Shown piece after piece: positions 3,201 through 63,900 of a DNA stretch of 64,000 nucleotides. The notes below the pieces were generated by a model. The model made no database searches and was not told the origin of the DNA. It was given only the letters and a program-made list of their open reading frames with translations. The stretch's first letter is position 1. Each line of letters opens with the position of its first letter. The translations under genes and the position numbers were made by a program. Source of the stretch: Isurus oxyrinchus (taxonomy: Eukaryota); contig JANJGN010000557.1 in assembly GCA_026770705.1 (NCBI GenBank), forward strand, positions 248,001-312,000. The letters are read 5' to 3'.

Positions 3201-6200
3201 CACAAATGCTAGTGGTTTCATTAAGACTATATCACACACTCCTGTTAGATCTTACATGGCATTCTGACACATAGCCTTTCATTCTCCCTGATAGATATAT
3301 ATTTCTCTCTTTGTAACATGAAAATTCTATTGTTCCAAATGTTTTTGAAACTGTATCTTCCTCATAACAAATTCTTTCGTGGTGCCCATATTGCCAGGAG
3401 CCTTTGAGAAAAATAAGCACATTCCTTAGTCTTGCTTATCTGGCTAGTTGTAAACAAACTAAGATTCCTTTGAAATCCAACAACCCCTTCATTGAAATAA
3501 AAATGCAAATTCTCTTCATACCTTCCATGCTAAGCAGCATCCATGTTTACTCAATAGCATGTCAAGCACCTAGCTCCTTTTGATCATTTTAAACTTCCAA
3601 TCTAATTAACTCCAAATGTACTTAAATCACATGCAGACCCATCATGCGTACCCCCATAAACCTACTTCACAATATACTATAAAATATTATGAAAATTATT
3701 ATACTTTCATCACAATAGGAACCACTGCCTTAGACACTGAGGATCTAGGACAGCTAGGCCAATTCATGATTCATGATGGTGATAATGGGGGAATTCTGAA
3801 GGCTCCTAATCCATTGTCCTAGTTTGTAAATCAGCAGTGAACTCACTTCAATTAGTGTGTCTTGTAGACACTGTGTTGGGTAGAAGACTGGCTTCACTAA
3901 ACAGGTTCCTGAGGGCCACGAGCCAATGTAGAATGAACTTGTCCACTCCTGTATCCAGGATTCTCTTCAATGTGTTGTGAAACATTGGGGCATTCATTGT
4001 GAGTCCAGACTGCAGCCACTGTGCCCCAGTGATGGAGGGGGTGGATTTTGAGTCTAGTGGATTGACAAAACATTCAGAGTTAAATATTGATATTTCTCCC
4101 CCTAGCTGGACTACCACAAGTGTGGAAAGGTGACACTCCACGAGAGGTGACAGCGCAGGAAGGTTCGTGTGTACAGATTCCGTGTCATTACAGCTACCCA
4201 TCATATTTAGTACCGAGATCACCTGTTGGAATCTGGTATATGAGAAGGAATTGGGAAACATGGTCTATAGCCTTTCACTCCAAGGATCACAGTCGCGAGT
4301 TACCACGGTTCCACAATCGGACCCGGCTTTCTGGAGACCTGAAAGATGGTGACTGTTCCCTGATTATAAACAACATCAGACGGGAAGATGCAGGATATTA
4401 TTTATTCAGAACAGATTTTGACAGCAGGAATAGATACAACGACCGTCCTGAAACCCAGCTTCATGTTTCTGGTAAGTGCTGTGTTATAATTACTCAACAA
4501 TTCACATCCAACACTCAATGGGAAATAATAGTGTTTGATTTGCTTGTTTTTTGGCCGTGTTAACCAGCGTCACTATTTTTAATGATTTGTCTATTTCTGC
4601 TCCCAGATCCATGAGCTTATTGTGTGTGATTGAATCCACATCATAGCTGTAACGTAAACCAAGCTGAGGGGTGATGACACCTCCCCCCTGAGTGAAGTGT
4701 CTCCTCCCCACTACACCTTCCACCCCTCACACTGTCTGTGTAATCTCCCGTCCCATCCCCAGCCTCTCTTTCCCCTCCAAAGTCCTGCAACGTGTTTCCA
4801 TCTCCCGAATCCGTTCCCATCTTTCCCGGAACTCCATGTTTGAATCCCTCCAATCAGGTTCCCACCCCAGCCACTGTGCTGAAACAGCTCTTATTTTTAT
4901 TGAGCAAATGCCAAGCCCCGATACCGAGCGAGAGCCTCCTCATTTGCTGAGTTTAAGGTGATGAGTCAGCCCCTTAGTCCGTAGACGGGATTCTCCTCGG
5001 TAATGTGCAGCCTTGTTTGTGTCTCTCCACAAGCGCATGAGGGGTTTGTACAGAGGCTGCAGCGCTGGAGGGGGTCTGCACAGGGGTCCTGGCCTGTCCT
5101 GAGCCAGTTTTAGCAAGGACAACTCTGGCCTTGGCAGCTGAAAGCCAGCCATTGGACAGACGGGGCCTGTCACAAGGAGCCTGTTAGTCACTCACCCCCG
5201 TGTCTCCTGTGCTCAGATCCAGACCATGTTGGCTGGTGGATCTGGCTCAGGAAGGGTCCTCCCCATGGGACCCCCAGAGGGAAGGTGGGTCGAGCGGGTC
5301 ACTCACTTGCATGTTTATTCTGCAGCTTTAATATTTTAAGAAGGTAAGAATGTAGGAACATAAGAAATAGGGACAGGAGCAGGCCATTCGGTCCCTCCAG
5401 CCTGCTCTCACTGATCTGGTTGCGGCCTTAACTCCATTTTCCTGCTTGTCCCCCAAACCCTTGACTCCCTTGTCGATCAAAAACCTGCCTCACTCAGCCT
5501 TGAGTCTATTCAATGGCCCAGTCTCCACTGCTCTCTGGGGAAGAGAATTCCACAGGCTAGCGCCCCTCTGAGAGAGGAAATTCCTCCTCATCTCAGTCTT
5601 AAATGGGAGAGTCCTCATTCCGAAACTGTGCTCCCTGGTTCTAGATTCCCCCACGAGGGGGAAACATCCTCCCAGCATCCACCCTGTCAAGCCCCCTCGG
5701 AATCGGATATGTTTCAATAAGGTCACCCCTCATTCTTCTAAACTCCAATGGATACAGCCCCAACCTGCTCAACATTTCCTCACAGGACAAACCCTTTAAT
5801 CCCAGGAATCAGCCCAGTGAAGCTTCTCTGAACTGCCTGTACACAATGATCCAGTTACAATCTCACTAACACCCTGTGCAGCTGTTGCAAGACTTCCCTC
5901 CTTTTATACTCCATCCCTTTGCAATAAAGGCCAACATTCCACTTGCCTTCCTCATTCCGTGGTGTTCCTGAATGCTGACTTTCTGTGATTCATGTACCAG
6001 GACACCCAGATCCCTCTGTACTGCATTCTGCAGCCTGTCTCCATTTAAATTATATCCTGTTTTTCTATTCATCCTGACAATATAATTTGTTGCCACTCTC
6101 CTCAGTATTGACCATCCCCCCAATTCAGCCTCATCTGTAAATATCGGGTTCAGTGGATCCACAAACCATTCAGAGTTAAATATTGAGATTTCTCTCCCCA

Positions 6201-9710: not shown

Positions 9711-10057
9711 ATTACATTGATTAACTCAAGTGATTAAAATGCTCAGCCTGTTCTGTAGATATTTAAAGATTAAAATTCTTGTTTTGCTGCAAAATACTTG
9801 GCTCAAAGACATTACTTCCTGTTGTCACGTTTTCCAATCAGATGAATTCCTCTGTCCATCTTTATAATAGAAATTTCCAATGTAAACATGTCACATTGTA
9901 GCTGCACACACTTGCCAGTGGCTGGTGTGATACCAAAGCTGTCTTGCTGCAGAGAAACAGCGAGAAATATTCCTGTTGTGTGCATGAACTTCATGTTAGC
10001 ATGAGACACAGGCATCAGATGCAATTTTGTGCAATTTGTACAATGTTCTTTAGACAG

Positions 10058-26301: not shown

Positions 26302-27457
26302 GTAATACACGTCACTGTCTTCAGCTCTGAGACTGTCAATCCTCACCGAACAATTCTTCCCTTCCAAGTCACCGATTATTTTAGCACGTCCCACGAATGT
26401 GGCCATCCCATAATTGGGATCTTTGGTGTATGTGATGGTATATTTCCATCTATACCAATATTTATACCAAGCTCCGTGCAGTGCTGTGTAAGAGTGGGAA
26501 GGAAAGTCAAAGCTACACGGAATAACCACACAAGAGCTGCTGATGGCCCTCCGAGGTAGCGCCTTCATAGACCATCCCTCTGACGTCACTCCTGAAAGGC
26601 AACAAGGGAAGAGACAGGACATCAAAAAGCAGAATATTACTTCAATGGAGAGAGGCAGCAGAATGCGGTACAGAGGGATCTGGGTGTCCTTGTACATGAA
26701 TCACAGAAAGTCAGCATTCAGGAACAGCACGGAATGAGGAAGGCAAGTGGAATGTTGGCCTTTATTGCAAAGGGATGGAGTATAAAAGGAGGGAAGTCTT
26801 GCTACAACTGTACAGGGCGTTGGTGAGATTGTATCAGGAGCAGTGTGTACTGTTCTGGTCTCCTTACTTAGGGAGGGATAGACTCTGCATTGGAGGCAGT
26901 TCAGAGGAGGTTCACTGGGCTGATTCCTGGGATGAAGGGGGTTTGTCCTGTGAGGAAATGTTGAGCAGGTTGGGCCCTGTATCCATTGGAGTTTAGAAGA
27001 ATGAGAGGTGATCTTATTGAAACATATAAGATTCTGAGGTGGTGGGGGGTTTGACAGGGTGGATGCTGATGGGATGTTACCCCTTGTGGGGGAATCCTGT
27101 GAAGCAATAAGGATGTTTTACTGCATTAAAGGTGCTGTATAAATGCACTGTCATTCCTATTGAAACAAGCTCTCTGATGCACAAACAGAAAATGCTGGAA
27201 AAACTCAGCAGGTCTGACAGCATCTGTGGAGAGAGAAACAGAGTTGGTGTTTCGAGTCCGTATGAGCCTTTTTCTTTTGCTATATTCTCTGACTCGCTAT
27301 TCACTCACTCTCTGTGTGATCACTAACCCTGTTCTCTAAAATTAAATGTTCACTTCCTCACTCCAGGAAAGAATCCAATTCCCTGAGTTCCGATCAGTAA
27401 TGAATTTGTACCTTGCAGCAAGCTGATGAAGATCAATATCAGACCGACCTCTCCCAT
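26302..27457 (-). pseudogene. Gene D: truncated paralogue of gene B (leader 27457-27412; V exon 26591-26302, cut after DVYY)
   Basis: Near-identical to the gene B leader and V exon. Homology stops at 26302, where Gypsy gag begins. No donor and no downstream exons. Confidence 0.92.
26630..27095 (+). mobile_element. CR1-type LINE fragment in the gene D leader-V intron (paralogous copy at 52340-52805)
   Basis: MEYKRREVLLQLYRALVRLYQEQCVLFWSPYL motif. Confidence 0.88.
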
Positions 27458-33398: not shown

Positions 33399-36300
33399 CT
33401 ACAGAGAAATGGAAACAGAAGACATCCTCACATCATTTACTGGCACTGATAGGGTTAAATTATTGTGCAGCCTCGTTAGTGTCAGTCGTGGCTCAGTGGG
33501 TTTAACCCTTTTTTCGCTCTCTCTCTTTCCCTCTCTCTCTCTCTCTCTTGCTCACCTGAGTCTGGAAGTCCTAGTTACCATCTGAATCGTGAGATTTGTG
33601 CTCCATTCATCACAAACACAGGCATCCAAAACACCTCACGCCAATGAAGGAATTTTATTGAAGTGTGTCACTGCTATAATGTTGGATCTTATATGCCCAC
33701 CTGAGAGGGTAAACATGGTCAGCATTACACAACTGTTCTGCAAGATGGCACTTTGAACAATGCAACGTTCTCTCAGTGCTGGCTCCTGACAGTGCGGCAC
33801 TCCCTTGGAACTGCCCCTTCGAGAGGGCAGCATTCCTTCAATATGGACCCTCCAACAGTGCGGCGCTCCCTCAGTATTGAACATCCGACAGTGCAGCACT
33901 CCCTCAGTTCTGACCCTCCGACAGTGCAGCACCCCCTCAGTACTGACCCTCCGATAGTGCAGCAGTCTCTCAGTACTGACCCTCTGACAGTGCAGCACTC
34001 TCTCAGTACTGAGCCTTCTCCAATGCATCACTCTCTCATTACTGACCCTCCAATGGTGCAGCACACCCTCAGTACTGATTCTCCTTCTGTGTTGCTCTCC
34101 CCCAGTGCTGACCTCAGATGTATCGGCATTTTTGTGCTCAGGTTTCTGGAGAAAGAGAGACTGAGGGAGAGAGAGAGAGAGCAAGAGACAATGCTAAAAA
34201 CTGAGCCATTGCTGACTCCACAGTTAGAAGTCAGTGGGTAACCTGGCTGAGAATCTGGGACACGTGTTGTCTACACACTGAGATTGAAGCTTTGGAGTGA
34301 GTGTAAACAGCTCCTGTACCTGGTGCTTCACAGAGAGTGACCTGGGGGTCAATGCAATGTCTCTGGTCCCTGAAACTCTCTCCTCCATCGCTGTCTTTCT
34401 CCTGCAATAACACAATATCACACTGTGGTTATCATATAGCAGAGAGTCAGTGCAGCACAGACACAGAGCCCAGTGTAACCTTACACCAACGACTGGACTG
34501 TCTCTAGTTCCAATAAGGGATATCAGCGTGACATCACTATAATGGAAGTGTGTCATGTGATCCAATCTTAGTTTCACTTTTGCTTTGAGCAGAGCACACA
34601 CTCACAGCTCTGATGCCTCCAAGCTTTATCCGTATGTATAACTGTTCTTGATAAACGAGCCCATAACATTCTCACCCAATCCCTGTGTGCGATTGGTGCT
34701 TTGTGTCTTGTACAGTAAATAAGCCCAAGGTATAATATCATTATAATAACACGCCATATCTTTGACCCCCCCTCCACCCCTGCTCTTGCCCCCATAGCCC
34801 TTCAAATTTTGCCCCTTCAAGTATTTATCCAATTCCCCTTTTGAAAGTTCCTATTGAATCTGCTTCCACCTCCCTTTCAGGCAGCACCTTCCAGATCACA
34901 GCAACTGATTATTATTCATCTGGATAACGGGCAATGAAAAACACTCTCTGGATCATAAGGGACAAAGAGACCAGTTACGGAGAGGCATCTGGCGCTTAAC
35001 ACAAGGGAAACAATCACCGACTTCAGGAAAGAACATTGAAGCAAATGTTTATCCAGGAGTAATCGTGCAGAGTGAGGAATCTCTGGGTCTCGTGATTGTT
35101 TACCTGGATACAGGACAATGAAAGGTTCTCTCCGGATCAGAGTGGACACAGGGACCACTTACCGAGAGGGACCTGGTGCTGATCCCAAGGGAAACAATCA
35201 CCGACTTAAGGAAAGAACATTGAAGCAAATGTTTATATTAAAATCAAGTTAAATCTTCAGACTTACTTTCTCACACAGATGAAGATGAAGATTCCAGCCA
35301 GGAAAACACTCAACATGATCCCAGCCGTGAGCAATCCTACTGTCCATTTACTGCAGTCTCTACCTGTAAAAACAGCCATTAATTACTGCACTACAGGTTT
35401 AGAATGATGCTCCGATGTATCTCGAGAAGCGATACACTCACTCAATGTTTAAATACTCATTCTCGGGCAATGCTGACATTTATTGTCCATCCCTAGTTTC
35501 CCCTTGAGAAGGTGGTGGGGGGTCTTCCTCCTGAACCACTGGTTTGTCCCAAACTGGGAGACCAGTTCAGAGGGCAGGTCAGAGTTAATTACATTGGTGT
35601 TTGAGACTGGAGTCACATATACACCCAGACAGGTTTCCCTCCCTAAAAGGTTATTAGTGATCCACCTCCTAAATGTAATCTCTTTGTATGAATCAACTAA
35701 CCTCACTAAAATTATCGATTATCAGTTCATTATCACAATGCTGATTGTTGGAATCTTGCTGTGCACAAATCAGTAGCTGCGTTTCCAACAATACAACAGT
35801 GAGCTCACTTCGAAACTGCTTCATTGGCTGTTGAGAGTTTCAGGAATTTCTAAGCAATTTATGAATAAACTTCTTGCATTTCCATATAACCTATCTAATA
35901 TTTATATGTAATATTTATCGATGTAATCTTTGTAATATTTATATATAATATTTATCGATGTAATCTATGTAACATTTATAGATGTTACAATACAGCAGTT
36001 GGTAAAAGCTGTGGTTTAAAATCCCAGAGGGGAACTTTAAACAACTGTTAAAACCTATATTTCCCAGTGGAATGTTTGAGATGCAGCTCAAAATTCAGGA
36101 ATAAGACCACCGGTTCTCTAGAGGTTTTTATATCAAACTAAATTTGCCAACTTATAACAAGTTAAATATAGACACATGGCTAAAAGTTACAACGATCAAA
36201 ACTTTTTATCAAATTCCCAAACTAATCTCCTCTAAGACAACCCATAGACTTTAAGCAGACACCAGGCAAAGCATTTTAACCTCACAAATTCCAAATGAGG

Positions 36301-39300: not shown

Positions 39301-42300
39301 GTCTCGCCAGTGAGACCTTCATCCCATGAACAAATAAAAAAATTACTCACATTCTGTGGGAATTCTAATGGGCAGAGACTTGGAACTGCCCAGGATACTT
39401 GTTGCTTCACAGTAGTAGGAGATTTCCTCATCGACTCCATCAGGAACCATAATAGTTTGACCAGTGAGTGTCAGATTAATGACCTTTCCTTGGGAGATCT
39501 TAAACCAGGTGAAATTGTGGACTGCTGGATTCCCGTCACTGGAGCAACTGAGAGAAATCATCTTTCCTTTTTCCCATGTCATCCTGACAGACGTATTGCG
39601 AGGAGAATCTTTCAAATACAAAATTATCAATACATTAACCAATGAGCTAAAGTCAGGAGTGTGATGGAACACTCTCCAGTTGCCGGGATGAGTGCAGCTC
39701 CAACAACACTCATGAAGCTCGACACCATCCAGGACAAAGCAGCCCACTTGATTGGCATCCCACCCACCATCTTCAACATTCACTCCCTCCACCTTGAATG
39801 CACAGTAGCAGCAGTGTGTACCATCTACAAGATGCACTGCAACAGCTCACCAAGGCTCCTTGAAAAGCACCTTCCAAACCTATCACCTCTAACATCTAGA
39901 AGGAAAAGGGCATCTGTTCATGGGAACACAACCACCTGCAAGTTCCCCTCCAATCCACACACCATCCTGAGTTGGAAATCTATCGTCATTTCCTTCACTG
40001 TCACTGGGTCATAATCCTGGAACTCCCTGCCTAACATTGCTGTGGGTGTACCTACAGCACATGGAGTGATTAGGGATGGGCAATAAATGTTGCCCATATC
40101 AGCAAATGAATTTAATATGGGCAAACTCATGTGGTTTAAAATCTAGAATTGAATAGTCTCTTTATATAATTATGGACTGGATACAGATCCAACACTAGCA
40201 CATGTACAGACTGCACTGTATTCCTCACCTGCAGATAATGTTACACAGAATTACAAGTAGTCTACAGCTGCGCATTCGGCCCATCTTTTCTATGTCAGAA
40301 GCCAAGACTGTACACAGTACTCCTGATGCAGTCTCACCAAGAGCCTATAGAGTTGTAACATGCATCCCTACTTTTACACTCAAGCTTGCTTACAATAAAC
40401 ACCAACGTTCCATTTGCCTTCCTAACACCTTGCTGCACCTGCATACTAACTTTCTATGATTCATGTACCAGGAATGATGTGTTAGTCATTGGAGAGAGTA
40501 TTCAGGATTCTGATTTACAGAAGACGATGTTTATAGTCACTTGGCAGCACAGAACCTGAGCATTGGTGTGAAAGGAGACATTCTGTCAAAGCTTTTCATC
40601 TTTCACTCATCAGAATTGCAAGAATACCAAATCTGAAAGGGAACAACAATTGATACTGCATGAGGAGAATGTGCTGATTAGCTGGCAAGCAGATAATTGT
40701 GGACAAATTGTGGATAAAGTGTCAAATGCCCACTTGCCAACCAATTCAATGAGAATCTGGAATTGACATTCTAACGATGACCATGAAAACATTACCGATT
40801 GTCGTTAAAAACCTATCTGGGTCACTAATGTTCTTTAGGGAGGGAAATTTGCTGTCCTTACCTGGTCTGGCCTACATGCAAGTCCAGACCCACAGAGATG
40901 TGGTTGACTCTTCAATACACTCTGTAATGGCCCAGCAAGCCATTCAGTTCCAGGGTAATTTGGGATGGGCAATAAATGTTGGTCTAGCCAGTGACACCTC
41001 CATCCCATGAACAAATGAAGAAAAGTACTCACATTCAGAGGGAATTCTAATGGGCAGAGACTGGGAACTGCCCAGGATGCTTGTTGCTTCACAGTAGTAG
41101 GAGATTTGCTCTTCAAATCCATAAGGAACTGTAATAGTTTGACCAGCGAGTGCCAGATTCGTCACTTTTCTTTGTGAGATTTTAAACCAGGTGAAATTGT
41201 GGACTACTGCATTCCCTTCACTGGAACAACTTAGAGAAATCATCTTTCCTTTTTCCAGTGTCATCCTGACAGACGTGTTGTGAGGAGAATCTTTCAAATA
41301 CAAAATTATCAACACATTAATAACTGAGTTAAAGTCAGGAGTGTGATGGAACACTCTCCAGTTGCCTGGATGAGTGCGGCTCCAGCAACACTCAGGAAGC
41401 TCGACACCATCCAGGACAAACAGCCCACTTGAACGTCATCCCACCCACAATCTACAACATTCACTCTCTCCACCATGAATGTCCAGTGTGTACCATCTAC
41501 AAGATGCACTGCAACAGCTCCCCAAGGCTCCTTGAACAGCACCTTCCATTCCTTAATACCAGAAGAACAAGGGCAGCAGAAAAATGGGAACAATGCCACC
41601 TGCAAGTTCCCCGCCAAGCCTCTCACCATCCTGAATTGGAAATGTATCGGCCGTTCCTTCACTATCGCTGGGTCAAAATCCTGGAACCCCTTCCCTAACA
41701 GCACTGTGGGTATACGTACAGCACATGGACTGCAGCAGGTCAGGACAAGGGGTAATTAAGGATAGGCAATAAATGTTACCCATATCAGCAGCTCCCACAT
41801 CCTGTGAATGAATTAAATATGGGCAAACTCATGAGGAGTAAAATCGAGATTTGAATAGTCTCTTTATATAATCATGGACTGGAAACAGCTCCAACACTAG
41901 CACAAGTAGAAACTGCACTGTATTCCTCACCAGCAGATAACATTACCCAGTATTACAGGTAGCCTTCAGCTGCACATTTGGCCCATCTTTTCTATGTCAG
42001 AATCAAAGACTGTACACAGTACTCGTGATGCAGACTCACCAAGAGCCTGTACAGTTGTAACATGCGTCCCTACTTTTACACGCGAGCTCCCTTACAATAA
42101 ACAGCAACGTTCCATTTGCCTTCCTAACCACTTGCTGCAGCTGCATACTAACTTTCTATGATTCATGTACCAGGAATGATGTGTTAGTCATTGGAGAGAG
42201 TATTCAGGATTCTGATTTACAGAAGACGATGTTTACAATCACTTGGCAGCACAGAACCTGAGCATTGGTGAGAAAGGAGACATTCTGTCAAAGCTTTTCA

Positions 42301-45300
42301 TCTTTCACTCATCAGGACAGAATTGCCAGAATACCAAATCTCAAAGGAAACAACAATTGATACTGCATGAGAAGAGGGTGCTGATTAGCTGGCAACAGAT
42401 AATTGTGGACCAATTGTGGCCAAAGTGGTCAAATGTCCACTTGCCAACCAATTCAATTAGAATCTGGAATTGAAAGTCTAATGATGACCATGAAAACAGT
42501 GCTGATTGTCGTTAAAACCCCATCTGGGTCACTAATGTCCTTTAGGGAGGGAAATCTGCTGTCCTTACCTGCTCTGGCGTACCTGTGACTCCAGCAATGT
42601 GGTTGATTCTTCAATACCCTCTGAAATGGCCCACCAAGCCACTCTGTTCCAGGGTAACTTGGGATGGGCAATAAATGTTGGTCTAGTCAGTGACACCTCC
42701 ATCCCATGAACGAATAAAAAAATTACTCACATTCTGTGGGAGTTCTAATGGGCAGAGACTGGGAACTGCCCAGGATACTTGTTGCTTCACAGTAGTAGGA
42801 GATTTCCTCATCGAATCCAGAAGGAACTGTAATAGTTTGACCAGCGAGCACCAAATTCATCACTTTTCCTTGGGAGCTCTTAAACCAGGTGAAATTGTGG
42901 ATTGGTGGATTCCCGTCACTGGAACAACTTAGAGAAATCATCTTTCCTTTTTCCAGTGTCATCCTGACAGACGTGTTATGAGGAGAATCTTTCAAATCCA
43001 AAATTATCAACACATTAACCACTGAGCTAAAGTCAGGAGTGTGATGGAACACTCTCCAGTTGCCGGGATGAGTGCGGCTCCAGCAACACTCAGGAAGCTC
43101 GACACCATCCAGGACAAAGCATCCCACTTGAACGGTACCCCACCCACCATAGTCAACATTCACTCCCTGGTGCACAGTGGCAGCAGTGTGTACCATCTAC
43201 AAGATGCACTGCAACAGCTCACCAAGGCTCCTTGAACAGCACCTTCCAAACCCTAACATCAAGTAGGACAAGGGGAGCAGATAGGTAGGAACAATGCCAC
43301 CTGCAAGATCCCCTGCAAGCCACTCACCATCCTGACTTGGAAATCTATCGCCATTCCTTCACTGTCACTGGGTCAAAATCCTGGAACTCCCTCCCTAACA
43401 TTGCTGTGGGTGTACCTACAGCACATGGACTGCAGCAGTTGAATACAGTGGCTCATGGGGTAATTAAGGATGGCTAATAAATGTTGCCCATATCATCAAA
43501 TGAATTAAATATGGGCAAACTCATGAGGTTTAAAATCTAGATTTGAATAGTCTCTTTATATAATCATGGACTGGATACAGCTCCAACACTAGCACAAGTA
43601 CAAACTGCACTGTATTCCTCACCAGCAGATAATGTTACACAGTATTACAGGTAGTCTACAACTGCGCATTCAGCCCATCTTTTCTATGTCAGAAGCCAAG
43701 ACTATACACAGTACTCCTGATGCAGTCTCAAAAAGAACCTGTACACCTCCACCCTACATCCCTAATACTTTTACTTAATCTCCCTTGCAATAAACACCAA
43801 CATTCCATTTGCCTTCCTAAACACTTGCTGCACCTGCATACGAACCTTCTATGTTTCATGTACCAGAAATTATATATTAGTCAATTGGGAGAGCATTCAG
43901 GAGAATTTACAGAAGAAGATATTTATAGTCACTTGGCGGTAAAAAATTTGAGCGTTGGAGAGAAAGGAGACATTCTGTCAAAGCTTTTCATTTTTCACTC
44001 ATCAGGACAGAATTGCAAGAATACCAAATCTCAAAGGGAACAACAATCGAGATTGCATGAGGAGGTGGTGCTGATTGCCTGGAAAGCAGATAATTGAGGG
44101 CAAATTGTGGATAAAGTGTCAAATGTCCACTTGCCAACCAATTCAATTAGGACCTGGAATTGAATTTCTAACGATGACCATGAAAACATTACCGATTGTC
44201 ATTAAAAACCCATCAGGGTCACTAATGTCCTTTAGGGAGGGAAATCTGCCGTCCTTACCTGGTCTGGCCTGCATGCAGGTCCAGACCCACAGAGATGTGG
44301 TTGACTCTTCAATGACCTCTGAAATGGCCCAGCAAGCCATTCAGTTCCAGGGTAATTTGGGATGGGCAATAAATGTTGGTCTAGCCAGTGAGATCTTCAT
44401 CCCATGAACGAATAAAAAAAGTACTCACATTCAGTGGGAATTCTAATGGGCAGAGACTGGGAACTGCCCAGGATACTTGTTGCTTCACAGTAGTAGGAGA
44501 TTTCCTCATCGAATCCATAAGGAACTGTAATAGTTTGACCAGTGAGCACCAGATTCGTCACCTTTCCTTGGGAGATCTTAAACCAGGTGAAATTGTGGAC
44601 TGCTGGATTCCCGTCACTGGAACAACTTAGAGAAATCACCTTTCCTTTTTCCCGTGTCAGCCTGACAGACGTGTTGTGAGGAGAATCTTTCAAATACAAA
44701 ATTATCAACACATTAACCACTGAGCTAAAGTCAGGAGTGTGATGGAACACTCTCCATTTGCCGGGATGAGTGCAGCTCCAGCAACGCTCATGAAGCTGGA
44801 TACCATCCAGGACAAAGCAGCCCACTTGAACGGCATCCCACCCACCATCTTCAACATTCACTCCCTCCACCATGAATGCACAGTGGTAGCAGTGTGTACC
44901 GTCTACAAGATGCAATGTAACAGCACACCTAGGCTCCTTGAACAGCACCTTCCAATCCCTAACACCTAGAAGTACAAGGGCAGCAGGAAAATGGGAACAA
45001 CGCCACCTGCAAGTTCCCCACCAAGCCTCTCACCATCTTGAATTGGAAATATATCGGCCGTTCCCTCACTATCGCTGGGTCAAAATCCTGGAACTCCCTC
45101 CCTAACAGCACTGTGGATATACGTACAGCATGTGGACTGCAGCAGGTCAGGACAAGGGGTAATTAGGGATGGGCAATTAATGTCGCCCATATCAGCAGCT
45201 CCCACATCCTGTGAATGAACTAAATATGGGCAAACTCATGAGGTTTAAAGTCTAGATTTGAATAGTCTCTTTATATAATCATGGACTGGATACAGCTCCA

Positions 45301-48300
45301 ACACTAGCACATGTACAAACTGCACTGTATTCATCACCAGCAGGTAATGTTACACAGAATTACAGGTAGTCTACAGCTGCACATTCGGCACATCTTTTCT
45401 ATGTCAGAAGCCAAGACTGTACACAGTACTCGTGATGCAGACTCACCAAGAGCCTGTACAGTTGTAACATGCGTCCCTACTTTTACACTCAAGCTCCCTT
45501 ACAATAAACAGCAACGTTCCATTTGCCTTCCTAACCACTTGCTGCACCTGCATACTAACTTTCTCTGATTTGTGTACCAGGAATGATGTGTTAGTCATTG
45601 GAGAGAGTATTCAGGATTCTGATTTACAGAAGACGATGTTTACAGTCACTTGGCAGCACAGAACCTGAGCATTGGTGTGAAAGGAGACATTCTATCAAAG
45701 CTCTTCAAATATTCTTTCCTTTTTCCAGTGTCATCCTGACAGACATGTTGTGAGGAGATTCTTTCAAATCCAAAATTATCAACACATTAACCACTGAGCT
45801 AAAGTCAGGAGTGTGATGGAACTCTCTCCAGTTGCTGGGATGAGTGCAGCTCCAACAACACTCAGGAAGCTCGACACCATCCAGGACAAAGCATCCCACT
45901 TGACTGGCATCCCACCCACCATCTTCATCATTCACTCCCTCCACCACCGACGCACAGTGGCATCAGTGTGTACCATCTACAAGATGCACTGCAACAGCTC
46001 ACCAAGGCTCCTTAAGCAGCACCTTCCAAACCTGTGACCTCTAACATCTAGAAGGACAAGGGCAGCAGACTCATGGGAACACCACCACCTGCAAGTTCTC
46101 CTCCAAGCCACACACCACCTTGACTTGGAAATCTATTGCCGTTCCTTCACTGTCACTGGGACAAAATCCTGGAACTCCCTGCCTAACATTGCTGTGGGTG
46201 TACCTACAGCACATGTAGTGAAGCGGTTCAAGACAATGTCTCAAGGGGTAATTAGGGATGGGCAATAAATGTTGCCCATATCAGCAAATGAATTAAATAT
46301 GGGCAAACGCATGTGGTTTAAACTCTAGATTTGAATAGTCTCTTTATATAATCATGGACTGGATACAGCTCCAACACTAGCACACGTACAAACTGCACTG
46401 TATTACCCACCAGCAGATAATGTTACACAGAATTAAAGATAGTCTACAGCTGCGCATTCGGCCCATCTTTTCTATGTCAGAAGCCAGGACTGTACACAGT
46501 ACTCGTGATGCAGTCTCACCAATAGCCTGTACAGTTGTAACATGCGTCTCTACTTTTACACTCAAGCTCCCTTGCAATAAACACCAATGTTCCATTTGCC
46601 TTCCTAACCACATGCTGCACCTGCATTCTAACTTTCTCTGATTTGTGTACCAGGAATGATATGTTAGTCATTTACGAGTGTATTCAGGATTTTGATTTAC
46701 AGAAGACGATGTTTACAGTCACTTGGCAGGACAGAACCTGAGCATTGGTGAAAAAGGAGACATTCTGTCAAAGCTTTTCATCTTTCACTCATCAGGACAG
46801 AATTGCAAGATTACCAAATCTCAAAGGGATAACAAATTATACTGCATGAGAAGAGGGTGCTGATTGGCTGGCAACAGATAATTGTGGACAAATTGTGGCC
46901 ATAGTGTTCAAATGTCCACTTTCCAACCAATTCAATGAGAATCTGTAATTGAAAGTCTATTGTTGACCATGAAAACATTGCCAATTGTCGTTAAAACCCC
47001 ATCTGGTTCACTAATGTCCTTTAGGGAGGTAAATCTGCTGTCCTTACCTGGTCTGGCCTTACATGTGACTCCAGACCCACAGCAACGTGGTTGACTCCTC
47101 AATATCCTCTGAAATGGCCCACTAAGCCTCTCTGTTCCAGTATAATTTGGGATGGGCAATAAATGTTGGTCTAGCCAGTGACACCTTCATCGCATGTATG
47201 AATAAAAAAAGTACTCACATTCAGTGGGAATTTTAATGGGCAGAGACTGGGAACTGCCCAGGATACTTGTTGCTTCACAGTAGTAGGAGATTTCCTCATC
47301 GAATCCATAAGGAACTGTAATAGTTTGACCAGTGAGCACCAGATTTGTCACCTTGCCTTGGGGGATCTTAAACCAGGTGAAATTGTGGACTGCTGGATTC
47401 CCATCACTGGAACAACTTAGAGAAATCATCTTTCCTTTTTCCCGTGTCAGCCTGACAGACGTGTTGTGAGGAGAATCTTTCAAATACAAAATTATCAACA
47501 CATTAAACACTGAGCTAAAGTCAGGAGTGTGATGGAATTCTCTCCAGTTGCCAGGATGAGTGCTGCTCCAACACACCCAAGAAACTCGACACCATCCAGG
47601 ACAAAGCCCAATTGATCGGCATCCCAACCACCATCTTCAACATTCACTCCCTCCACCAATGACGCACATTATCAGCAATGTGTACCATCTACAAGATGCA
47701 CTGCAGCAACTCACCAAGGCTCTTAAGACAGCACCTTCCAACGCATGACCTCTGAAACCTATAAGGACAAGGGCAGCAGATACATGGGAACATCACCACC
47801 TGTAAGTTCCCCTCCAAGCCACACACCATCCTGACTTGGAACGATTTCACTGTTACTTCATTGTTTCTGGGTCAAAATCCTAGAACACTCTCCAGGAAGC
47901 ACTTTTGGTGCACCTTCACTACATGCTGTGCAGCAGTCCCAGAAGTCAGCTCACCACCACCTTCCAAAGGGACAATTAGGAATGGGTGATAAATGCTGGC
48001 CCCAGCCAGTAATGGCCACATCCCAGAAAAGAATGAAAAAAAGAGTGAACTGATGAGGTGTAACATCCAGATTGGGATAGGGTCTGTTTTGAATCATGGA
48101 CTGGATACAGCTCCAACACTAGCACCTGTACAAACTGCACTGTGTTCCTCACCAGCAGATGATGTCACACAGAATTACAGCGAGTCTACAAGTGGCTATC
48201 TCACCCCATCCCCATAACCTTTTCTTACTTTCTCCCTCATGTGTTTATCCCTTAAATACATCGATACTATTCACCTTTACCACTCCCTGTGGGAGCGACT

Positions 48301-51300
48301 TCCACATTCTCCCCACTCTCTGGGTAAAGAAGTTTCTCCTGAATTCCCCACTGGATTTATTAATGATTATCTTATATTGATGGATCCTAGTTCTGGCCTC
48401 GCTCCAACAAGTGGAAACATCTTCTCTACATCTACCCTATCGAAACCGTTTCATCATTTTAAGGACCTCGATCAGGTCACCCCCTCAGCCTTCTCTTTTC
48501 TAGAGACAAGAATACCAGCTTGTTCAGTCTTTCCTGTTAGTTATAACCTCTCAGTTCGGAGATCATCCATGTCAATCCCACTTGCACCTTCTCCAATGCC
48601 TGATTTAATAGGAGACTGACTCCCCCTCCATCACAAGCAGGATGTTCTAACCAATACTTACACTTTACACTCAGAGTAACTGAGTTGACCACTCGATGGC
48701 TGGTTTGAGGGTAGTCACAGGTACAGCGGAGAGTTCGTCCATGATGCTTGAACGAAGGGTTAAAGGTCAGTAGAGCAGAAACCTCACCACCGTTCTCTGT
48801 GATGGTGCTGACCGAGGAAGTCAGCAATTCACTCCAGGTTAGATTGGGGTGGTTATCAGGGCAGGTGTCGAGGCATTTACAGATGATATGTGCAGGAGTG
48901 CCCTCCTGTAAATCCTTCAGGAGCACAATAACTGGCTTATCTGGAACATCTGTAATAGAAAGTTCCAGATGTTAACAGACAAGTAGAAAAGAGATTTGAT
49001 TTGTCCTTTGATTTTTCAATAGGGTCACAGACACTCAGAACACAGAAGGAGGCCATTCAGCCCATCGAGTCCATGCTGTCACTCTGTAGACCAATCCAGT
49101 CAGTCCCATTCCCCCTCCTCTATCCCCGTATCCCTGCGAATTTATTTCCCTCAAGTGTCCGTCCAATTTCATTTTGAAATCGCCCATCGTCTCCACTTCC
49201 ACCATCCTCGTAGGCAGCGATTTCCAGCTCATTACCACTCGCTGTGTAAAAAAGTTCCTCCTCACATCCCCCCTCTTCCCACAACCTTCAATCTGTGTCC
49301 CCCAGTCCTTGTCCCATCAGCTAATGGCAACAGCTTCTCTTTGTCTACCTTATCTAAACCCATCATCATCTTGTACACCTCGATCAGATCCCCCCTCAAT
49401 CTCCTTTGCTCCAAGGAGAACAACCCCAGCTTCTCCAACCCAACCTTGTAGCTAAAATCCCTCATCCCTGGACCCATTCTGCTCAATCTCCTCTCCACCC
49501 AGAAGCAAAAAAACAGCTCAGACCAGGACTCTTATTTCCCAGTTTTACTGGTGTTCTATATTATTCTATACAAGACCAGTTTGGACCAGGACTCTTATTT
49601 CCCAGTTTTACTGGTGTTCTATATTAAGCTATACAAGACCAGTTTGGACCAGGACTCTTATTTCCCAGTTTTACTGGTGTTATATGTTAAGCTATACAAG
49701 ACCAGTTTCGAGCAGGACTCTTATGTCCCAGTTTTTACTGTTTTGTCCTCTTTGACACCCTTTCTGAAGCTCTTACATCTTTCCTGAAGTGTGGAGGCCC
49801 AGCGTTCTGAACAATATTCCAGCTGAGTTCTAACCAGTGATTTATAAAGTTCCCGCATGATCTCTTTGCTTTTAACTCGGTTCCTCAGTCTGTTAACACA
49901 AGGAAAATATTTGCTTTCTTAATCCCCTCAACAAGTTGCCCTTTAATCTTTCAGAATGTGTGCAGAGAGACACCCAGGTCTCTATTGTCCAACACTTGTC
50001 CAAATTGTTCGTGTCCAATATCTTTCTGTATTCATCCTGACAAAGTGCGTCACTTCACACTTCACTGCACTAAAATGCATCAGCTATGTGTCTGCCCACC
50101 TCACCCTGATCCTGCCCCTCTCGTGCCCAATCTCTCCTTATCACTACCCACTGCTTTGCCAATGATCCTCAGACTGTGGAGCACTCACGCAGCACTGACC
50201 CCCAACCATGCAGAACTCCCTCAGTACTGACACTCCGACACTGCAGCACTCCCTCAGTACTGACACTCTGATAGTGCAGTACTCCCTCAGTACTGACCCT
50301 CTGACAGTGCAGCACTCCCTCAGTACTGACCCTCCGACAGTGCAGCACCCCATCAGTACTGACTCTCTGAAAGTGCAGCACCCCCTCAGTATTGACACTC
50401 TAACAGTGCAGCACCACCTCAGTACAGACCCTCTGACAGTGCAGCACTCCCTCAGTACTGACCCTCTGACAGTGCAGCACTCCCTCAGTACTGACCATCC
50501 GACAGTGCAGCACTCCCTCAGTACTGACCTTCTGACAATGCAGCACTCCCTCAGTACTGACCTTCTGACAGTGCAGCACTCCCTCAGTACTGACCCTTCG
50601 ACAGTGCAGCACTCCCTCAGTACTGACCCTCTGACAGTGCAGCACTCCCTCAGTACTGACCCTCCAACAGTGCAGCACCCCATCAGTACTGACTCTCTGA
50701 AAGTGCAGCACCCCCTCAGTATTGACACTCTAACTGTGCGGCACCCCCTCAGTACTGACCATCTGACAGTGCAGCACTCACTCAGTACTGATCTTCTGAC
50801 AGTGCAGCACTCCATCAGTACTTACCCTTCGACAGTGCAGCACTCCATCAGTACTGACCCTCTGACAGTGCAGCATTCCCTCAGTACTGACCCTCCAACA
50901 GTGCAGCACCCCATCAGTACTGACTCTCTGAATGTGCAGCAGCCCCTCAGTATTGACACTCTAACAGTGCAGCACCCCCTCGGTACTGACCCTCTGACAG
51001 TGCAGCACTCCCTCAGTACTGACCATACGACACTGCAGCACTCCCTCAGTACTGACCTTCTGACAGTGCAGCACTCCCTTTTCACTGACCTCTGACAATG
51101 CAGCACTCCCTCAGTACTGACCTTCTGACAGTGCAGCACTCCATCAGTACTGACCCTTCGACAGTGCAGCACTCCCTCAGTACTGACCCTCTGACAGTGC
51201 AGCACTCCCTCAGTACTGACCCTCCAACAGTGCAGCACCCCATCAGTACTGACTCTCTGAAAGTGCAGCACCCCCTCAGTATTGACACTCTAACTGTGCG

Positions 51301-53166
51301 GCACCCCCTCAGTACTGACCTTCTGACAGTGCAGCACTCCCTCAGTACTGACCATCTGACAGTGCAGCACTCACTCAGTACTGATCTTCTGACAGTGCAG
51401 CACTCCATCAGTACTTACCCTTCGACAGTGCAGCACTCCATCAGTACTGACCCTCTGACAGTGCAGCATTCCCTCAGTACTGACCCTCCAACAGTGCAGC
51501 ACCCCATCAGTACTGACTCTCTGAATGTTCAGCAGCCCCTCAGTATTGACACTGTAACAGTGCAGCACCCCCTCGGTACTGACCCTCTGACAGTGCAGTA
51601 CTCCCTCAGTACTGACCCTCTGACAGTGCAGCACTCCCTCAGTACTGACCATACGACACTGCAGCACTCCCTCAGTACTGACCTTCTGACAGTGCAGCAC
51701 TCCCTTTTCCCTGACCTCTGACAGTGCAGCACTCCCTCAGTACTGATCCTTTGACACTGCAGCACTCCCTCAATACTGACCCTCTGACAGTGCGGCACTC
51801 CCTCAGTACTGTGCCTGATCACATCCTGGACTTTGTTCTGACATCTCCTGGAGCAGGAATTGAACCCATGACTGCCTGGCTCTGAGATGAGAACATGACC
51901 CCCTTGTGCTGAGAGACTGAGTGTGAAAGGAACTGGGACTTACCAAGAACCTGGAGTTGGACTGGTTGTGTAAAAGTGTGATCTGTGTAGCCCTCCACAT
52001 CCACATAAAAGTAATACACATCACTGTCTTCAGCTCTGAGACTGTCAATCCTCACCGAACAATTCTTCCCTTCCAAGTCGCCGATTATTTTAGCACGTCC
52101 CACGAATGTGGCCATCCCATAATTGGGATCTTTGGTGTATGTGATGGTATATTTCCATCTATACCAATATTTATACCAAGCTCCGTGCAGTGCTGTGTAA
52201 GAGTGGGAAGGAAAGTCAAAGCTACACGGAATAACCACACAAGAGCTGCTGATGGCCCTCTGAGGCAGCGCCTTCATAGACCATCCCTCTGACGTCACTC
52301 CTGAAAGGCAACAAGGGAGGGGACAGGACATCAAAAAGCAGTATATTACTTCAATGGAGAGAGTCTACAGAATGTGACACAGAGGGATCTGGGTGTCCAT
52401 GTACATGAATCACAGAAAGTCAGCATTCAGGAACAGCACAGAATGAGGAAGGCAAGTGGAATGTTGGCCTTTATTGCAAAGGGATGGAGTATAAAAGGAG
52501 GGGAGTCTTGCTACAACTGTACAGGGCGTTGGTGAGATTGTATCAGGAGCAGTGTGTACAGTTCTGGTCTCCTTACTTAGGGAGGGATAGACTCTGCATT
52601 GGAGGCAGTTCAGAGGAGGTTCACTGGGCTGATTCCTGGGATGAAGGGGGTTTGTCTTATGAGGAAATGTTGAGCAGGTTGGGCCCTGTATCCATTGGAG
52701 TTTAGAAGAACGAGAGGTGATCTTATTGAAACATATAAGATTCTGAGGTGGTGGGGGGTTTGACAGGGTGGATGCTGAGGGGATGTTACCCCTTGTGGGG
52801 GAATCCTGTGACGCAATAAGGATGTTTTACTGCATTAAAGGTGCTATATAAATGCACTGTCATTCCTATTGAAACAAGCTCTCTGATGCACAAACAGAAA
52901 ATGCTGGAAAAACTCAGCAGGTCTGACAGCATCTGTGGAGAGAGAAACAGAGTTGACGTTTCGAGTCCGTATGAGTCTTTTTCTTTTGCTATATTCTCTG
53001 ACTCGCTATTCACTCACTCTCTGTGTGATCACTAACCCTGTTCTCTAAAATTAAATGTTCACTTCCTCACTCCAGGAAAGAATCCAATTCCCTGAGTTCC
53101 GATCAGTAATGAATTTGTACCTTGCAGCAAGCTGATGAAGATCAATATCAGACCGACCTCTCCCAT
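33150..53166 (-). CDS. Gene B: inhibitory CD22/MAG-like Siglec receptor, 7 Ig domains, 813 aa. Exons 53166-53121, 52300-51944, 48949-48662, 47476-47219, 44686-44429, 42988-42731, 41290-41033, 39608-39351, 35363-35267, 34401-34320, 34145-34113, 33398-33150.
   Basis: Twelve GT/AG exons with compatible phases sum to 2442 nt (814 codons) and are open throughout: leader, V, six C2, TM, ITIM and ITSM. Confidence 0.88.
33780..34085 (+). repeat. 33-bp minisatellite (degenerate) in a gene B intron
   Basis: About 9 units. Confidence 0.9.
34113..34145 (-). CDS. Gene B cytoplasmic mini-exon (KPEHKNADTSE)
   Basis: Long CT tract with cAG acceptor, GAG|GTCAGC donor, 33 nt, phase 0-0. Paralogue at 62869-62837. 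Confidence 0.65.
34320..34401 (-). CDS. Gene B cytoplasmic exon 1 (RKTAMEERVSGTRDIALTPRSLSVKHQ)
   Basis: ttgcAG acceptor and CAG|GTACAG donor, phase 2-0, matching the TM exon. Confidence 0.8.
35267..35363 (-). CDS. Gene B transmembrane exon (uncharged TM)
   Basis: ttacAG acceptor and AA|GTAAGT donor. RDCSKWTVGLLTAGIMLSVFLAGIFIFICVR. Confidence 0.9.
36600..37725 (+). mobile_element. PIF/Harbinger DDE transposase, degenerate
   Basis: GFPxVQGTIDCTHV, NHKGFHSLNMQLVCD, WLLGDKDYP, RYNEAQAATRNLV, IVIVCCALYN, with stops and frameshifts. Confidence 0.9.
37726..38880 (-). mobile_element. Harbinger ORF2 (Myb/SANT-like) relic, convergent with the transposase
   Basis: TQCRKRMNDLLRSTS|GTAAG, then DKLAHNRRGRSQTGG..LTELENRVIQLAG. 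Confidence 0.8.
39351..39608 (-). CDS. Gene B repeated C2 exon (domain 7)
   Basis: 258 nt, phase 1-1, ISLSCSSDGNP..FTW..ISYYCEAT. Confidence 0.9.
41033..41290 (-). CDS. Gene B repeated C2 exon (domain 6)
   Basis: 258 nt, phase 1-1, open. Confidence 0.9.
42731..42988 (-). CDS. Gene B repeated C2 exon (domain 5)
   Basis: 258 nt, phase 1-1, open. Confidence 0.9.
44429..44686 (-). CDS. Gene B repeated C2 exon (domain 4)
   Basis: 258 nt, phase 1-1, open. Confidence 0.9.
45714..45760 (-). pseudogene. Truncated C2 exon copy (acceptor plus ~47 nt)
   Basis: SPHNMSVRMTLEKGK, then a deletion. This unit is ~620 bp shorter than the others. Confidence 0.9.
47219..47476 (-). CDS. Gene B repeated C2 exon (domain 3)
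   Basis: 258 nt, phase 1-1, open. Confidence 0.9.
48662..48949 (-). CDS. Gene B C2 exon (domain 2)
   Basis: ttacAG acceptor and T|GTAAGT donor; 288 nt. DVPDKPVI..IICKCLDTCPDNHPNLTW..LTFNPSFKHHGRTLRCTC. Confidence 0.92.
49035..49500 (-). mobile_element. CR1-type LINE 3' end
   Basis: LGLFSLEQRRLRGDLIEVYK..TRTGGHRLK and RRNFFTQRVV motifs. Confidence 0.92.
49521..49740. repeat. 63-bp tandem repeat, about 3.5 units
   Basis: GACCAGGACTCTTATTTCCCAG at 49521, 49584 and 49647. Related sequence at ~22270-22370. Confidence 0.92.
50170..51812 (+). repeat. Large 33-bp minisatellite (~50 units) in the gene B V-C2 intron
   Basis: Direct inspection. Confidence 0.97.
51944..52300 (-). CDS. Gene B V-set exon; essential Arg replaced by Tyr
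   Basis: tttcAG acceptor and G|GTAAGT donor; 357 nt. SCVVIPC and NCSVRI Siglec cysteines; F strand reads DSDVYYFYVD. Confidence 0.93.
53121..53166 (-). CDS. Gene B signal peptide exon (MGEVGLILIFISLLQ)
   Basis: Acceptor before 53180, ATG at 53166, CAAG|GTACAA phase-1 donor. Confidence 0.85.
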
Positions 53167-61600: not shown

Positions 61601-61792
61601 GTATTAACAGATGTAAAATTATAGATAATTCATAAGCTTCTCACAATCTTTTACAGCATGGAAAAAGGTACAGCATTCAGAAAGCTCACTCAGAACCAAT
61701 AAAAAAAAAGTTGAGCAACATCATATTTCTGTTCATTACTATTTGACCATGTTGGCTGCACACACCCCACAGCCCCGCTCCCTGTTTCGCAC

Positions 61793-63900
61793 TCAGTTTT
61801 TCTGGAACCTGATCTGTGTGTATTCCGTGTCCTCGCTCCTGTGCACAGTCCTGTCACCGCTGGGCAGCTTTGAAAAGTTGATGTTGGCGTAGAGAATCTC
61901 GTCGGGTTTGTCAGGATTCCCATGTCCAGCATCGCCTCCCACTGGACCTTCAGAGAGATCCCAGGGGAGCTGGGGTCTCCCCCTCACTAGTTGTGTCTCT
62001 GGTTGTGTTCCGGGGCTCAGTAATCAGCACGTTCTGTTTACCCTACAGAGAAATGGAAACAGAAGACATCCTCACATCATTTACTGGCACTGATAGGGTT
62101 AAATTATTGTGCAGCCTCGTTAGTGTCAGTCGTGGCTCAGAGCGTTTAACCCTTTTTTTCAAAGACATCCAAAGAACCTCACGCAAATGAAGAAATTTTT
62201 GTTGAAGGGTGTCACTGCTATAGTGTTGGAAATGTGGCCGTGGGATCTTATACGACCACCTGAGAGGGTAAACATGGTCAGCATTATACAACTGTTCTGA
62301 AAGACAGCACCTTGAACACTACAATGTACTCTCAGTGCTGGCTTCTGACAGTGCGGCACTCCCTCACAACTGCCTCTTCGAGAAGGCAGCACCACTTGAA
62401 TATTGACTATGCGACAGTGCAGCACCCCCTCAGTACTGACCCTCGCACAGTGCAGCACCCCCTCAGTACTGACTCTCCGACAGTGCAGCACTCCCTCACT
62501 ACTGACCCTCCGACAGTGCAGCACTGCCTCAGTACTGACACTCCGACAGTGCAGCACTCCCTCAGTACCTACCCTCCGACAGTGCAGCACTCCCTCAGTA
62601 GTGACCCTCCGACAGTGCAGCACTCCCTCAGTACCTACCCTCCGACAGTGCAGCACTCCCTCAGTACTGACCCTCCGACAGTGCAGCACTGCCTCAGTAC
62701 TGACACTCCGACAGTGCAGCACTCCCTCAGTAGTGACCCTCCGACAGTGCAGCACTGCCTCAGTACTGACACTCCGACAGTGCAGCACTCCCTCAGTACC
62801 TACCCTCCGACAGTGCAGCACTCCCTCAGTAGTGACATCAGGTGCCTTGTGATTATTGTGTTCAGGTCTCTGGACAAAGAGCGAGTGATGGAGGGAGAGA
62901 GGGGGGAGGGACCGAGAGTCAGTATTACCTACTGAGCCATTGCTGACTCCACAGGTAGATATCTGTGGGTAACTGGGTTGGGAATCTGGGACACGTGTTG
63001 TCTACACACTGATATTGAAGCTTTGGAGTGAGTGTAAACAGCTCCTGTACCTGGTGCTTCACAGAGAGTGGACTGGGGCTCAATACAATGTCACTGGTCC
63101 CTAAAACTCTCTCCTCCATCGCTGTCTTTCTCCTGCAATAACACAATATCACACTGTGGTTATCATATAGCAGAGAGTCAGTGCAGCACAGACACAGAGC
63201 CCACTGTAACCTTACACCAACGACTGGACTGTCTCCAGTTGCAATAAGGGATATCAGTGTGATATCACTATAATGGAAGTGTGTCATGTGATCCAATTTT
63301 GCCTGACCCCTCCATCCCTGCTCTTCCCCCCGTAGCCCTTCAAATTTTGTCCCTTCAAGTATTTATCCAATTCCCCTTTTGAAAGTTCCTATTGAATCTG
63401 CTTCCACCGCCCTTTCAGGTAGCACCTTCCAGATCACAGCAACTGATTATTATTCATCTGGATAACGGGCAATGAAAAACACTCTCTGGATAATAAGGGA
63501 CAAAGTGACCAGTTACGGAGAGGCATCTGGCGCTTAACACAAGGGAAACAATCACCGACTTCAGGAAAGAACATTGAAGCAAATGTTTATCCAGGAGTAA
63601 TCGTGCAGAGTGAGGAATCTCTGGGCTCGTGATCGTTTACCTGGATACAGGACAATGAAAGGTTCTCTCCGGATCAGAGTGGACACAGGGATCACTTACA
63701 GAGAGGGACCTGGTGCTGATCCCAAGGGAAACAATCACCGACTTAAGGAAAGAACATTGAAGCAAATGTTTATATTAAAATCATGTTAAATCTTCAGACT
63801 TACTTTCTCACACAGATGAAGATGAAGATTCCAGCCAGGAAAACACTCAACATGATCCCAGCCGTGAACAATCCTACTGTCCATTTACTGGAGTCTCTAC
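61793..63900 (-). CDS. Gene C: 3' end of a gene B paralogue (TM 63900-63804; cytoplasmic exons 63132-63051, 62869-62837, 62042-61793). The last exon is frameshifted. Ig exons lie beyond the window.
   Basis: Exons align with gene B. The last exon is 250 nt against 249 in B, giving TGA at 61952-61950 before ILYANI and TEYTQI. Confidence 0.85.
62340..62835 (+). repeat. 33-bp minisatellite in a gene C intron
   Basis: About 14 units; paralogue of 33780-34085. Confidence 0.95.

Follow-up and report, generated by a model that had tools for sequence, protein, structure and literature searches.

What would an inhibitory receptor recognize if it were built on the scaffold of the sialic-acid-binding Siglecs, with another residue in place of the arginine that holds the sugar? 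This question is raised by a stretch of 64,000 nucleotides of the shark Isurus oxyrinchus (assembly GCA_026770705.1, contig JANJGN010000557.1, positions 248,001 to 312,000 of the forward strand), hereafter the window, whose own positions are used throughout. An earlier note, made from the letters of the window, had described a receptor gene whose V domain carries tyrosine at the arginine position, and had proposed a different ligand such as a neutral glycan, a lipid or a protein. According to our best reading, to which we assign a probability of roughly 0.6, the gene encodes an intact, spliced receptor of inhibitory type, the GFCC' face of which appears to have been re-surfaced for a conserved non-sialic host 'self' ligand, the tyrosine having replaced the arginine before sharks and rays separated. 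That split took place well over 200 million years ago. Three features carry the argument:

51944..52300, minus strand: Siglec-type V-set exon (tyrosine-type), AG..GT ends, 357 nucleotides, phase 1, encoding a 118-residue V domain
52005..52007, minus strand: TAT codon of Tyr98, at the sialic-acid arginine position (MAG Arg118), register from the phmmer alignment and homologues
52149..52172, minus strand: KYWYRWKY, residues 43-50 at the tip of the C-C' hairpin, predicted strands 36-45 and 48-54

A tyrosine at the arginine position and its conservation

Translation of the exon confirmed the tyrosine reported before (TAT, 52007-52005) within the F strand DSDVYYFYVD, and by the genetic code TAT is indeed at least two changes away from any arginine codon. 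In a phmmer comparison with solved structures, Tyr98 pairs with the arginine of MAG (5LFR, the best match, E-value 2e-14), and the alignments with sialoadhesin and Siglec-5 give the same register. Nor do the F and G strands offer another arginine: residues 89-118 (F, FG and G strands), read directly from the sequence, contain neither Arg nor Lys, and the FG region has Glu-Gly-Tyr plus three acids. Ganglioside binding by MAG requires Arg118, Tyr127 and Thr128 (PMC5150538). The equivalents in the tyrosine-type clade are Tyr, mostly His (18/23 domains, with Tyr in 5/23; His is also present in 33 arginine-type domains) and mostly Thr. T108 and W6, corresponding to MAG T128 and W22, are largely retained. 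Three V-domain cysteines, C20, C25 and C80, are invariant (one sequence from each of 14 genera plus the window); in the precursor they are residues 36, 41 and 96, and D2 has cysteines at 158, 160, 164, 210 and 212. This appears to be the odd cysteine pattern of Siglecs, namely a B-E intrasheet pair and a cysteine for the D1-D2 bond, which in MAG is the C37-C165 disulfide (PMC5150538). Since the essential F-strand arginine of Siglecs is missing from all 16 full-length copies in the genome and all 27 homologues described below, we call these receptors Siglec-like rather than Siglecs.

The C-C' stretch, AWYKYWYRWKYTITY, had been characterized as aromatic and basic. Of its residues K43, Y44, W45, W48, K49 and Y50 are invariant, but Arg47 is not conserved. 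The comparison drawn with gene A of the window stands only in part. Both V exons of gene A do encode arginine (AGA at 4408 and 6504); however, gene A is only about 30% identical to the tyrosine-type V domain and thus represents a separate lineage, not the ancestral state of exon 52300-51944.

The V domain was modelled from a 70-sequence alignment with a mean predicted local distance difference test score (pLDDT) of 92.5, replacing a poor model from 13 sequences (pLDDT 62.8); its strands span residues 36-45, 48-54, 93-102 and 105-108. The best folds for the model are sialoadhesin and MAG, in agreement with the proposed Siglec scaffold: VIA gave Z 19.2 for sialoadhesin (root-mean-square deviation 1.5, 114 residues aligned) and 18.9 for MAG, with the next non-Siglec-like fold at 13.9, and the Foldseek template-modelling scores were 0.88 and 0.89, respectively. 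We assigned residues to faces from the strand limits of the model and the usual alternation of V-set strands. With W41 and F97 in the core, A40, Y42, Y44, K49, Y96, Y98 and D100 would belong to the face where Siglecs accommodate sialic acid. K43, W45, W48 and Y50 would be at the back of a hairpin that a two-residue turn closes. A homodimer prediction for two V copies, which did not use the alignment, scored 0.15 against a mark of 0.32 and was not counted either way.

The tyrosine is not a single-gene oddity but the fixed state of a subfamily found throughout sharks and rays. Two database searches yielded 27 close homologues from 14 genera, comprising sharks (Carcharodon, Cetorhinus, Scyliorhinus, Hemiscyllium, Chiloscyllium, Rhincodon, Stegostoma, Pristiophorus and Heptranchias) and rays (Pristis, Mobula, Hemitrygon, Rhinoraja and Amblyraja), every one of them with Tyr at the site. 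The pattern W[FY][KE]YWxxWKY is present in all 26 homologues that cover the loop, and 39 of 118 positions are invariant in the set of one sequence per genus plus the window, including K43, Y44, W45, W48, K49, Y50 and Y98. Mean pairwise identity is 0.84 for residues 43-50 compared with 0.69 for the whole V domain, and between sharks and rays the V domain (0.66) is better conserved than the next domain (0.55); the window domain is 96% identical to the Carcharodon protein. Conservation this deep points to a surface that is functionally used.

The motif KYWxxWKY is also specific, as it is found in 22/23 clade domains and in none of 586 non-clade domains. An HMMER search of 1.84 billion representatives returned seven clusters scoring 160-232 bits in one stretch, all of them known elasmobranch proteins, with the next single-stretch matches reaching 82 bits at most. 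Among the matches listed (the best 120 of 589 and the best 150 of 1287, plus the two homologue searches), none from a holocephalan or bony vertebrate belonged to the clade, and an Atlas search produced only generic Siglec-like clusters.

The receptor gene, its transcripts and its copies

The V exon belongs to a gene at 53166-33150 on the minus strand with 11 exons, all bounded by AG and GT, which encodes 802 residues with no internal stop. The receptor consists of a leader, the V domain, one Siglec-type D2, five near-identical C2 domains, an uncharged transmembrane segment and a tail with LLYANI and TEYTLI. The remaining features of the locus are as follows:

53121..53166, minus strand: signal-peptide exon, ATG to GT donor, phase 1; the same peptide opens protein P0001
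48662..48949, minus strand: second immunoglobulin (Ig) exon, Siglec D2 type, with the extra Cys expected for a D1-D2 disulfide; spliced to the following exon in RNA-type contigs
39351..47476, minus strand: span of five tandem 258-nucleotide C2 exons (47476-47219, 44686-44429, 42988-42731, 41290-41033, 39608-39351)
45760 (start), minus strand: broken C2 copy within the tandem C2 array
35267..35363, minus strand: transmembrane exon, hydrophobic core without a charged residue
34320..34401, minus strand: first cytoplasmic exon, same reading in protein P0004
33150..33398, minus strand: last exon, with an immunoreceptor tyrosine-based inhibitory motif (ITIM), LLYANI, and an immunoreceptor tyrosine-based switch motif (ITSM)-like TEYTLI, the tyrosines 23 residues apart
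26302..27457, minus strand: truncated duplicate with a leader (27457) and a V exon (from 26591) that breaks off after exon base 290, two codons short of the tyrosine

The 802-residue model skips the broken C2 exon at 45760, inclusion of which would lead to a stop at residue 317. By motif, the tail is of the inhibitory type, with an ITIM and a distal ITSM-like motif behind an uncharged transmembrane segment. Together with the fold, the 11 exons and the uninterrupted frame, this bears out the claim of an intact ITIM receptor on a Siglec scaffold. Upstream in the window, at 61690-63400 on the minus strand, lies the tail of a paralogue with ILYANI and TEYTQI motifs. The V-to-D2 intron harbours a minisatellite of a 33-bp type (50150-51800), which recurs at 10050, 28470, 55650 and 62330.

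Evidence for splicing comes from contigs of public runs guessed to be RNA, though none is recorded as such, of which only the spliced joints were used. In contigs of X1 and X6, which come from two studies and two organisms, the GT-AG intron 48661-47477 is spliced out between the D2 exon and the first C2 exon. A 702-nucleotide X6 contig contains the V exon with both of its borders exact and runs on into the D2 exon, and contigs of X3 and X6 end precisely at the V exon borders; the leader exon is covered by RNA-type contigs to the same depth as the V exon. These contigs show spliced transcripts of the subfamily, their reads not being assignable to the window copy.

The earlier note had also called for a survey of paralogues. 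Among 150 scored matches to the V exon in the 5-Gb assembly, where copy counts may include both haplotypes, there are 16 full-length exons of 94-100% identity, 103 rows (about 102 copies) that break off no later than residue 95-98, and 31 distant paralogues. Tyr98 is present in 16/16 full-length copies, encoded by TAT in 11 and by TAC, a silent variant, in 5. Variants among these copies amount to 10 silent changes over 75 sites and 11 replacements over 279 sites, a ratio of 0.30 (binomial p 0.006, uncorrected for transition bias). The truncated copies were dropped as a neutral control because only the 14 best-scoring of about 102 had been read, making their 6 silent and 5 replacement changes biased.

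The 16 copies fall into three body types: four resemble the window gene, two have eleven C2 repeats and another transmembrane segment, and ten have a third transmembrane segment. Of the twelve copies in the last two types, one has an upstream stop, with no tail found, and one lacks the D2 exon. In all 16 the V exon is the N-terminal and only V domain within the stretch up to the transmembrane exon. None of the 16 leads to a transmembrane exon with a charged core residue, and a paired activating form was not found among the full-length copies. The occurrence of the same V exon on three transmembrane and tail sets and with 1 to 11 C2 repeats (L031-L075) suggests head shuffling and variable receptor length.

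All 14 truncated copies that were read, one of them at 26591-26302 of the window, break after exon base 290. The roughly 100 truncated V copies (window 26302-27457, L017-L030) share this cut two codons ahead of the tyrosine. The DNA beyond it is degenerate, probably retroelement-like, and without a Pfam match. A single old break amplified through segmental duplication would account for them.

What the GFCC' face may bind

How might such a receptor work? The Siglec V fold with fixed tyrosine and fixed KYWxxWKY hairpin provides the starting point. Tyr98 would point outward on the GFCC' sheet, among Tyr42, Tyr44, Tyr96, His107, Asp100 and Trp6. Because this predicted patch is aromatic and acidic, with no basic residue adjoining Tyr98, it should disfavour a carboxylate. 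A surface retained over such a time is more in keeping with a host ligand that changes slowly than with one presented by a pathogen. Within this reading we would give about half of the weight to a host protein, less to a membrane lipid head group and least to a neutral glycan. Judging from Siglec biology, clustering by the ligand would lead to phosphorylation of the ITIM/ITSM-type tail and recruitment of SHP-1 or SHP-2, and activation would be damped.

Several observations weigh against this reading. Domains lacking the arginine are common among fish Siglec-like proteins: 221 of the 586 non-clade domains were set aside for gaps or an unsure register, and of the 365 with a safe register 99 have another residue; the same applies to 11 of 103 named elasmobranch non-clade domains. 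Judging from these comparisons, what is special about the subfamily is its fixed, co-conserved surface, not the absence of arginine as such. The tail is another concern. In 12 of the 16 copies it is, where present, a different one, DLYANC..SVYGNL, with a single ITIM-like motif, so that 'inhibitory' is firm by motif only and mainly for four copies. The predicted location of K43, W45, W48 and Y50 on the back of the hairpin means that the conserved segment may in part have a structural role. The runs behind the transcript contigs are RNA by guess, and their reads are not tied to the window copy. Finally, Siglec-6 binds sialylated glycolipids largely without its arginine (PMC12953582, PMC10122656), and the tyrosine-type domain has invariant Trp and Lys residues. 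The R122A mutant of Siglec-6 keeps about 75% of glycolipid-liposome binding (PMC12953582), and the premise of the earlier note that loss of the arginine abolishes sialic-acid binding is therefore not general.

The Siglec-6 case suggests a rival that we regard as unlikely but serious, namely that the shark receptor binds sialylated or sulfated glycolipids. Its Trp/Tyr/Lys hairpin would dip into the membrane, and the acid group would be bound by Lys43 or Lys49, outside the canonical site. Siglec-6 W127A loses about 95% of liposome binding, which depends on Trp127 and Lys126 (PMC12953582), and in the shark domain K43, W45, W48 and K49 are invariant in 15/15 rows, position 46 is aromatic in 14/15, and most sequences retain the residues equivalent to MAG W22 and T128. 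However, Siglec-6 retains its arginine and requires it for free oligosaccharides, its Lys-Trp pair lies in the FG region, where the shark domain has Glu-Gly-Tyr and three acids, and MAG R118A shows no binding to GT1b liposomes (PMC5150538). Alternatively, the aromatic segment might have a structural role, as a hairpin that a Trp-Trp pair closes and that packs on the base of the domain or on D2, the V domain serving as a spacer or a cis partner of neighbouring arginine-type Siglecs with no ligand of its own. In the model W45 and W48 do flank the two-residue turn, and proteins P0024 and P0025 are annotated with a tyrosine-type V domain and arginine-type V domains in one chain, although these may be fused gene models. 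We nevertheless consider it improbable, given that the tyrosine-type V domain is N-terminal and the sole V in every full-length copy, that Tyr98, Tyr44 and Tyr96 are invariant though predicted to face outward, and that related domains fold without the motif.

Still less probable is that W45-x-x-W48 is kept as a C-mannosylation site decorating or stabilizing the loop beside the old pocket, by analogy with MAG, where W22 is C-mannosylated (PMC5150538). WxxW is indeed a mark of the clade loops (21/21, against 11/104 in other elasmobranch loops, that is, 5/96 named and 6/8 own exons picked as best query matches, and 1/428 elsewhere); of 26 Trp pairs in non-clade loops, 16 have a spacing of three. 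Yet C-mannosyltransferases need a small +1 residue (PMC10154233, PMC12990085, PMC8433626), the clade has a bulky one (Tyr, His, Phe or Asn) in 15/15, and the modification would leave the tyrosine at the arginine site unexplained. Recent degenerative loss, as in human Siglec-XII or great-ape Siglec-5/14, seems to us very improbable. Such losses are published, including one Arg-to-Tyr change in orangutan SIGLEC14 (PMC6288428, PMC7379906), and about 100 V exon copies in the shark genome are truncated; nonetheless, fixation of the tyrosine in 14 shark and ray genera, strong conservation and splicing all speak against decay.

The shark and ray receptors resemble the primate proteins in having a Siglec scaffold and a signalling tail without the essential arginine (human Siglec-XII R122C; great-ape Siglec-5/14 with His or Tyr; PMC6288428, PMC7379906). 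They differ in that the primate losses are recent, occur at the level of species, are often polymorphic and tend to be interpreted as decay or pathogen escape. The elasmobranch state is fixed and accompanied by a new invariant surface, and this is how a change of ligand under purifying selection would look. With Siglec-6, whose function does not depend on the canonical arginine (PMC12953582, PMC10122656), they share V-domain Trp/Lys residues and probably that independence; by contrast, Siglec-6 retains that arginine, still needs sialic acid and has its Lys-Trp pair after the F strand instead of on the C-C' hairpin. Siglecs lacking the arginine are therefore already known. What is apparently new, from the literature searched, is an ancient, elasmobranch-wide, fixed tyrosine-type subfamily. 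We found no description of it there, supplements, reviews of Siglec evolution and other subscription papers lying outside the search; PMC7226832 deals with teleosts only, and PMC8455134 has a single mention of Siglecs. Database names such as CD22-like, MAG-like and Siglec-13 imply a sugar specificity that is probably absent from these proteins. The domain is concrete and can be expressed, and it may provide a handle on which self molecules other than sialic acid were recognized by the inhibitory receptors of early vertebrates.

Relatives in other vertebrates and in the shark genome

The tyrosine-type set forms one clade (support 100/99, 100/100 and 100/100), within which short internal branches part sharks from rays. 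Its sister differs with the method, four tree set-ups giving three different answers. FastTree placed MAG there (0.835). Three IQ-TREE runs on the V domain alone gave a bony-vertebrate group with tryptophan at the arginine site (94/88, 86/85 and 93/84, the last with the arginine-site columns removed and two long rows left out), although this join was never starred. In the two-domain tree the sister was a third group (92/85) and the tryptophan-type group stood apart. A grouping with MAG was not rejected (p-AU 0.41). Trees thus establish neither orthology to MAG nor the link to the tryptophan-type group.

MAG nonetheless has much in common with the shark receptor. It is the best solved-structure match both for the V domain (E-value 2e-14) and for the catshark homologue P0012 (2e-41), the fold Z is 18.9, both have three V-domain cysteines, and frog and gecko MAG tails read YANI..EYA with the same 23-residue spacing. 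With a frog MAG V query, the 16 tyrosine-type exons rank first in the shark genome at 38-41% identity. A separate MAG was not found there with four frog MAG queries (in three of which 150 of about 900-1100 candidates were scored), which is not proof of absence. On the other side, the shark receptor has Tyr for Arg118, mostly His for Tyr127, no A-strand WxxW and another C-C' loop, and it is multicopy with a variable number of C2 domains, unlike five-Ig MAG. Mean scores against the clade profile rise from 47 bits for tryptophan-type through 52 for arginine-type domains to 77 for MAG.

The tryptophan-type group, apparently undescribed, is a set of about 170 Siglec-like V domains with an F strand of the form Y-x-W-[IV]-D-P (for example P0207, P0209, P0080, P0165 and P0222) from gar, teleosts, a tailed frog, a caecilian and a turtle. 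Its members resemble the tyrosine clade in an aromatic residue at 98, Asp100 (122/128) and Tyr/Phe44 (106/128), and differ in lacking KYWxxWKY. A tryptophan-type query found no separate exon of this kind among 150 scored matches in the shark genome, and the residue is present in 0/103 named elasmobranch non-clade domains. It is tempting to speculate, quite tentatively, that sharks and rays have a second, sialic-acid-independent 'self' checkpoint, in which an aromatic and acidic site, unchanged from their common ancestor onward, reads one conserved host molecule. The lineage might then be the elasmobranch branch of an unrecognized arginine-less family of jawed vertebrates, with Tyr at the site in elasmobranchs and Trp in the bony fishes, amphibians and turtles, or it might descend from MAG.

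Within the shark genome the arginine-type family is the larger one, with at least 150 V exons (150/150 scored matches at 88% or more). Its C-C' loops vary: the exons fetched, which were best query matches, have 12 different ones with lengths of 11-18 residues. Combined with about 118 tyrosine-type V exons these make up a very large Siglec-like cluster, both haplotypes possibly being counted, on contigs C52, C71, C121, C150, C189, C323, C385, C546, C557, C646, C724, C838, C926, C1130, C1184 and C1343. Gly stands at the arginine site in three of the 15 paralogues read from the shark genome; these V exons of the arginine family (L078, L079 and L081) have undergone an independent Arg-to-Gly change, with YYFFGIEF and a WxxWxxW C-C' loop. 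Arginine-type shark V domains (window 4117-4467, L076-L094) often carry WxxW or WxxWxxW in this loop, several with a small +1 residue, and such repeats are candidates for C-mannosylation sites or for 9-nucleotide slippage repeats.

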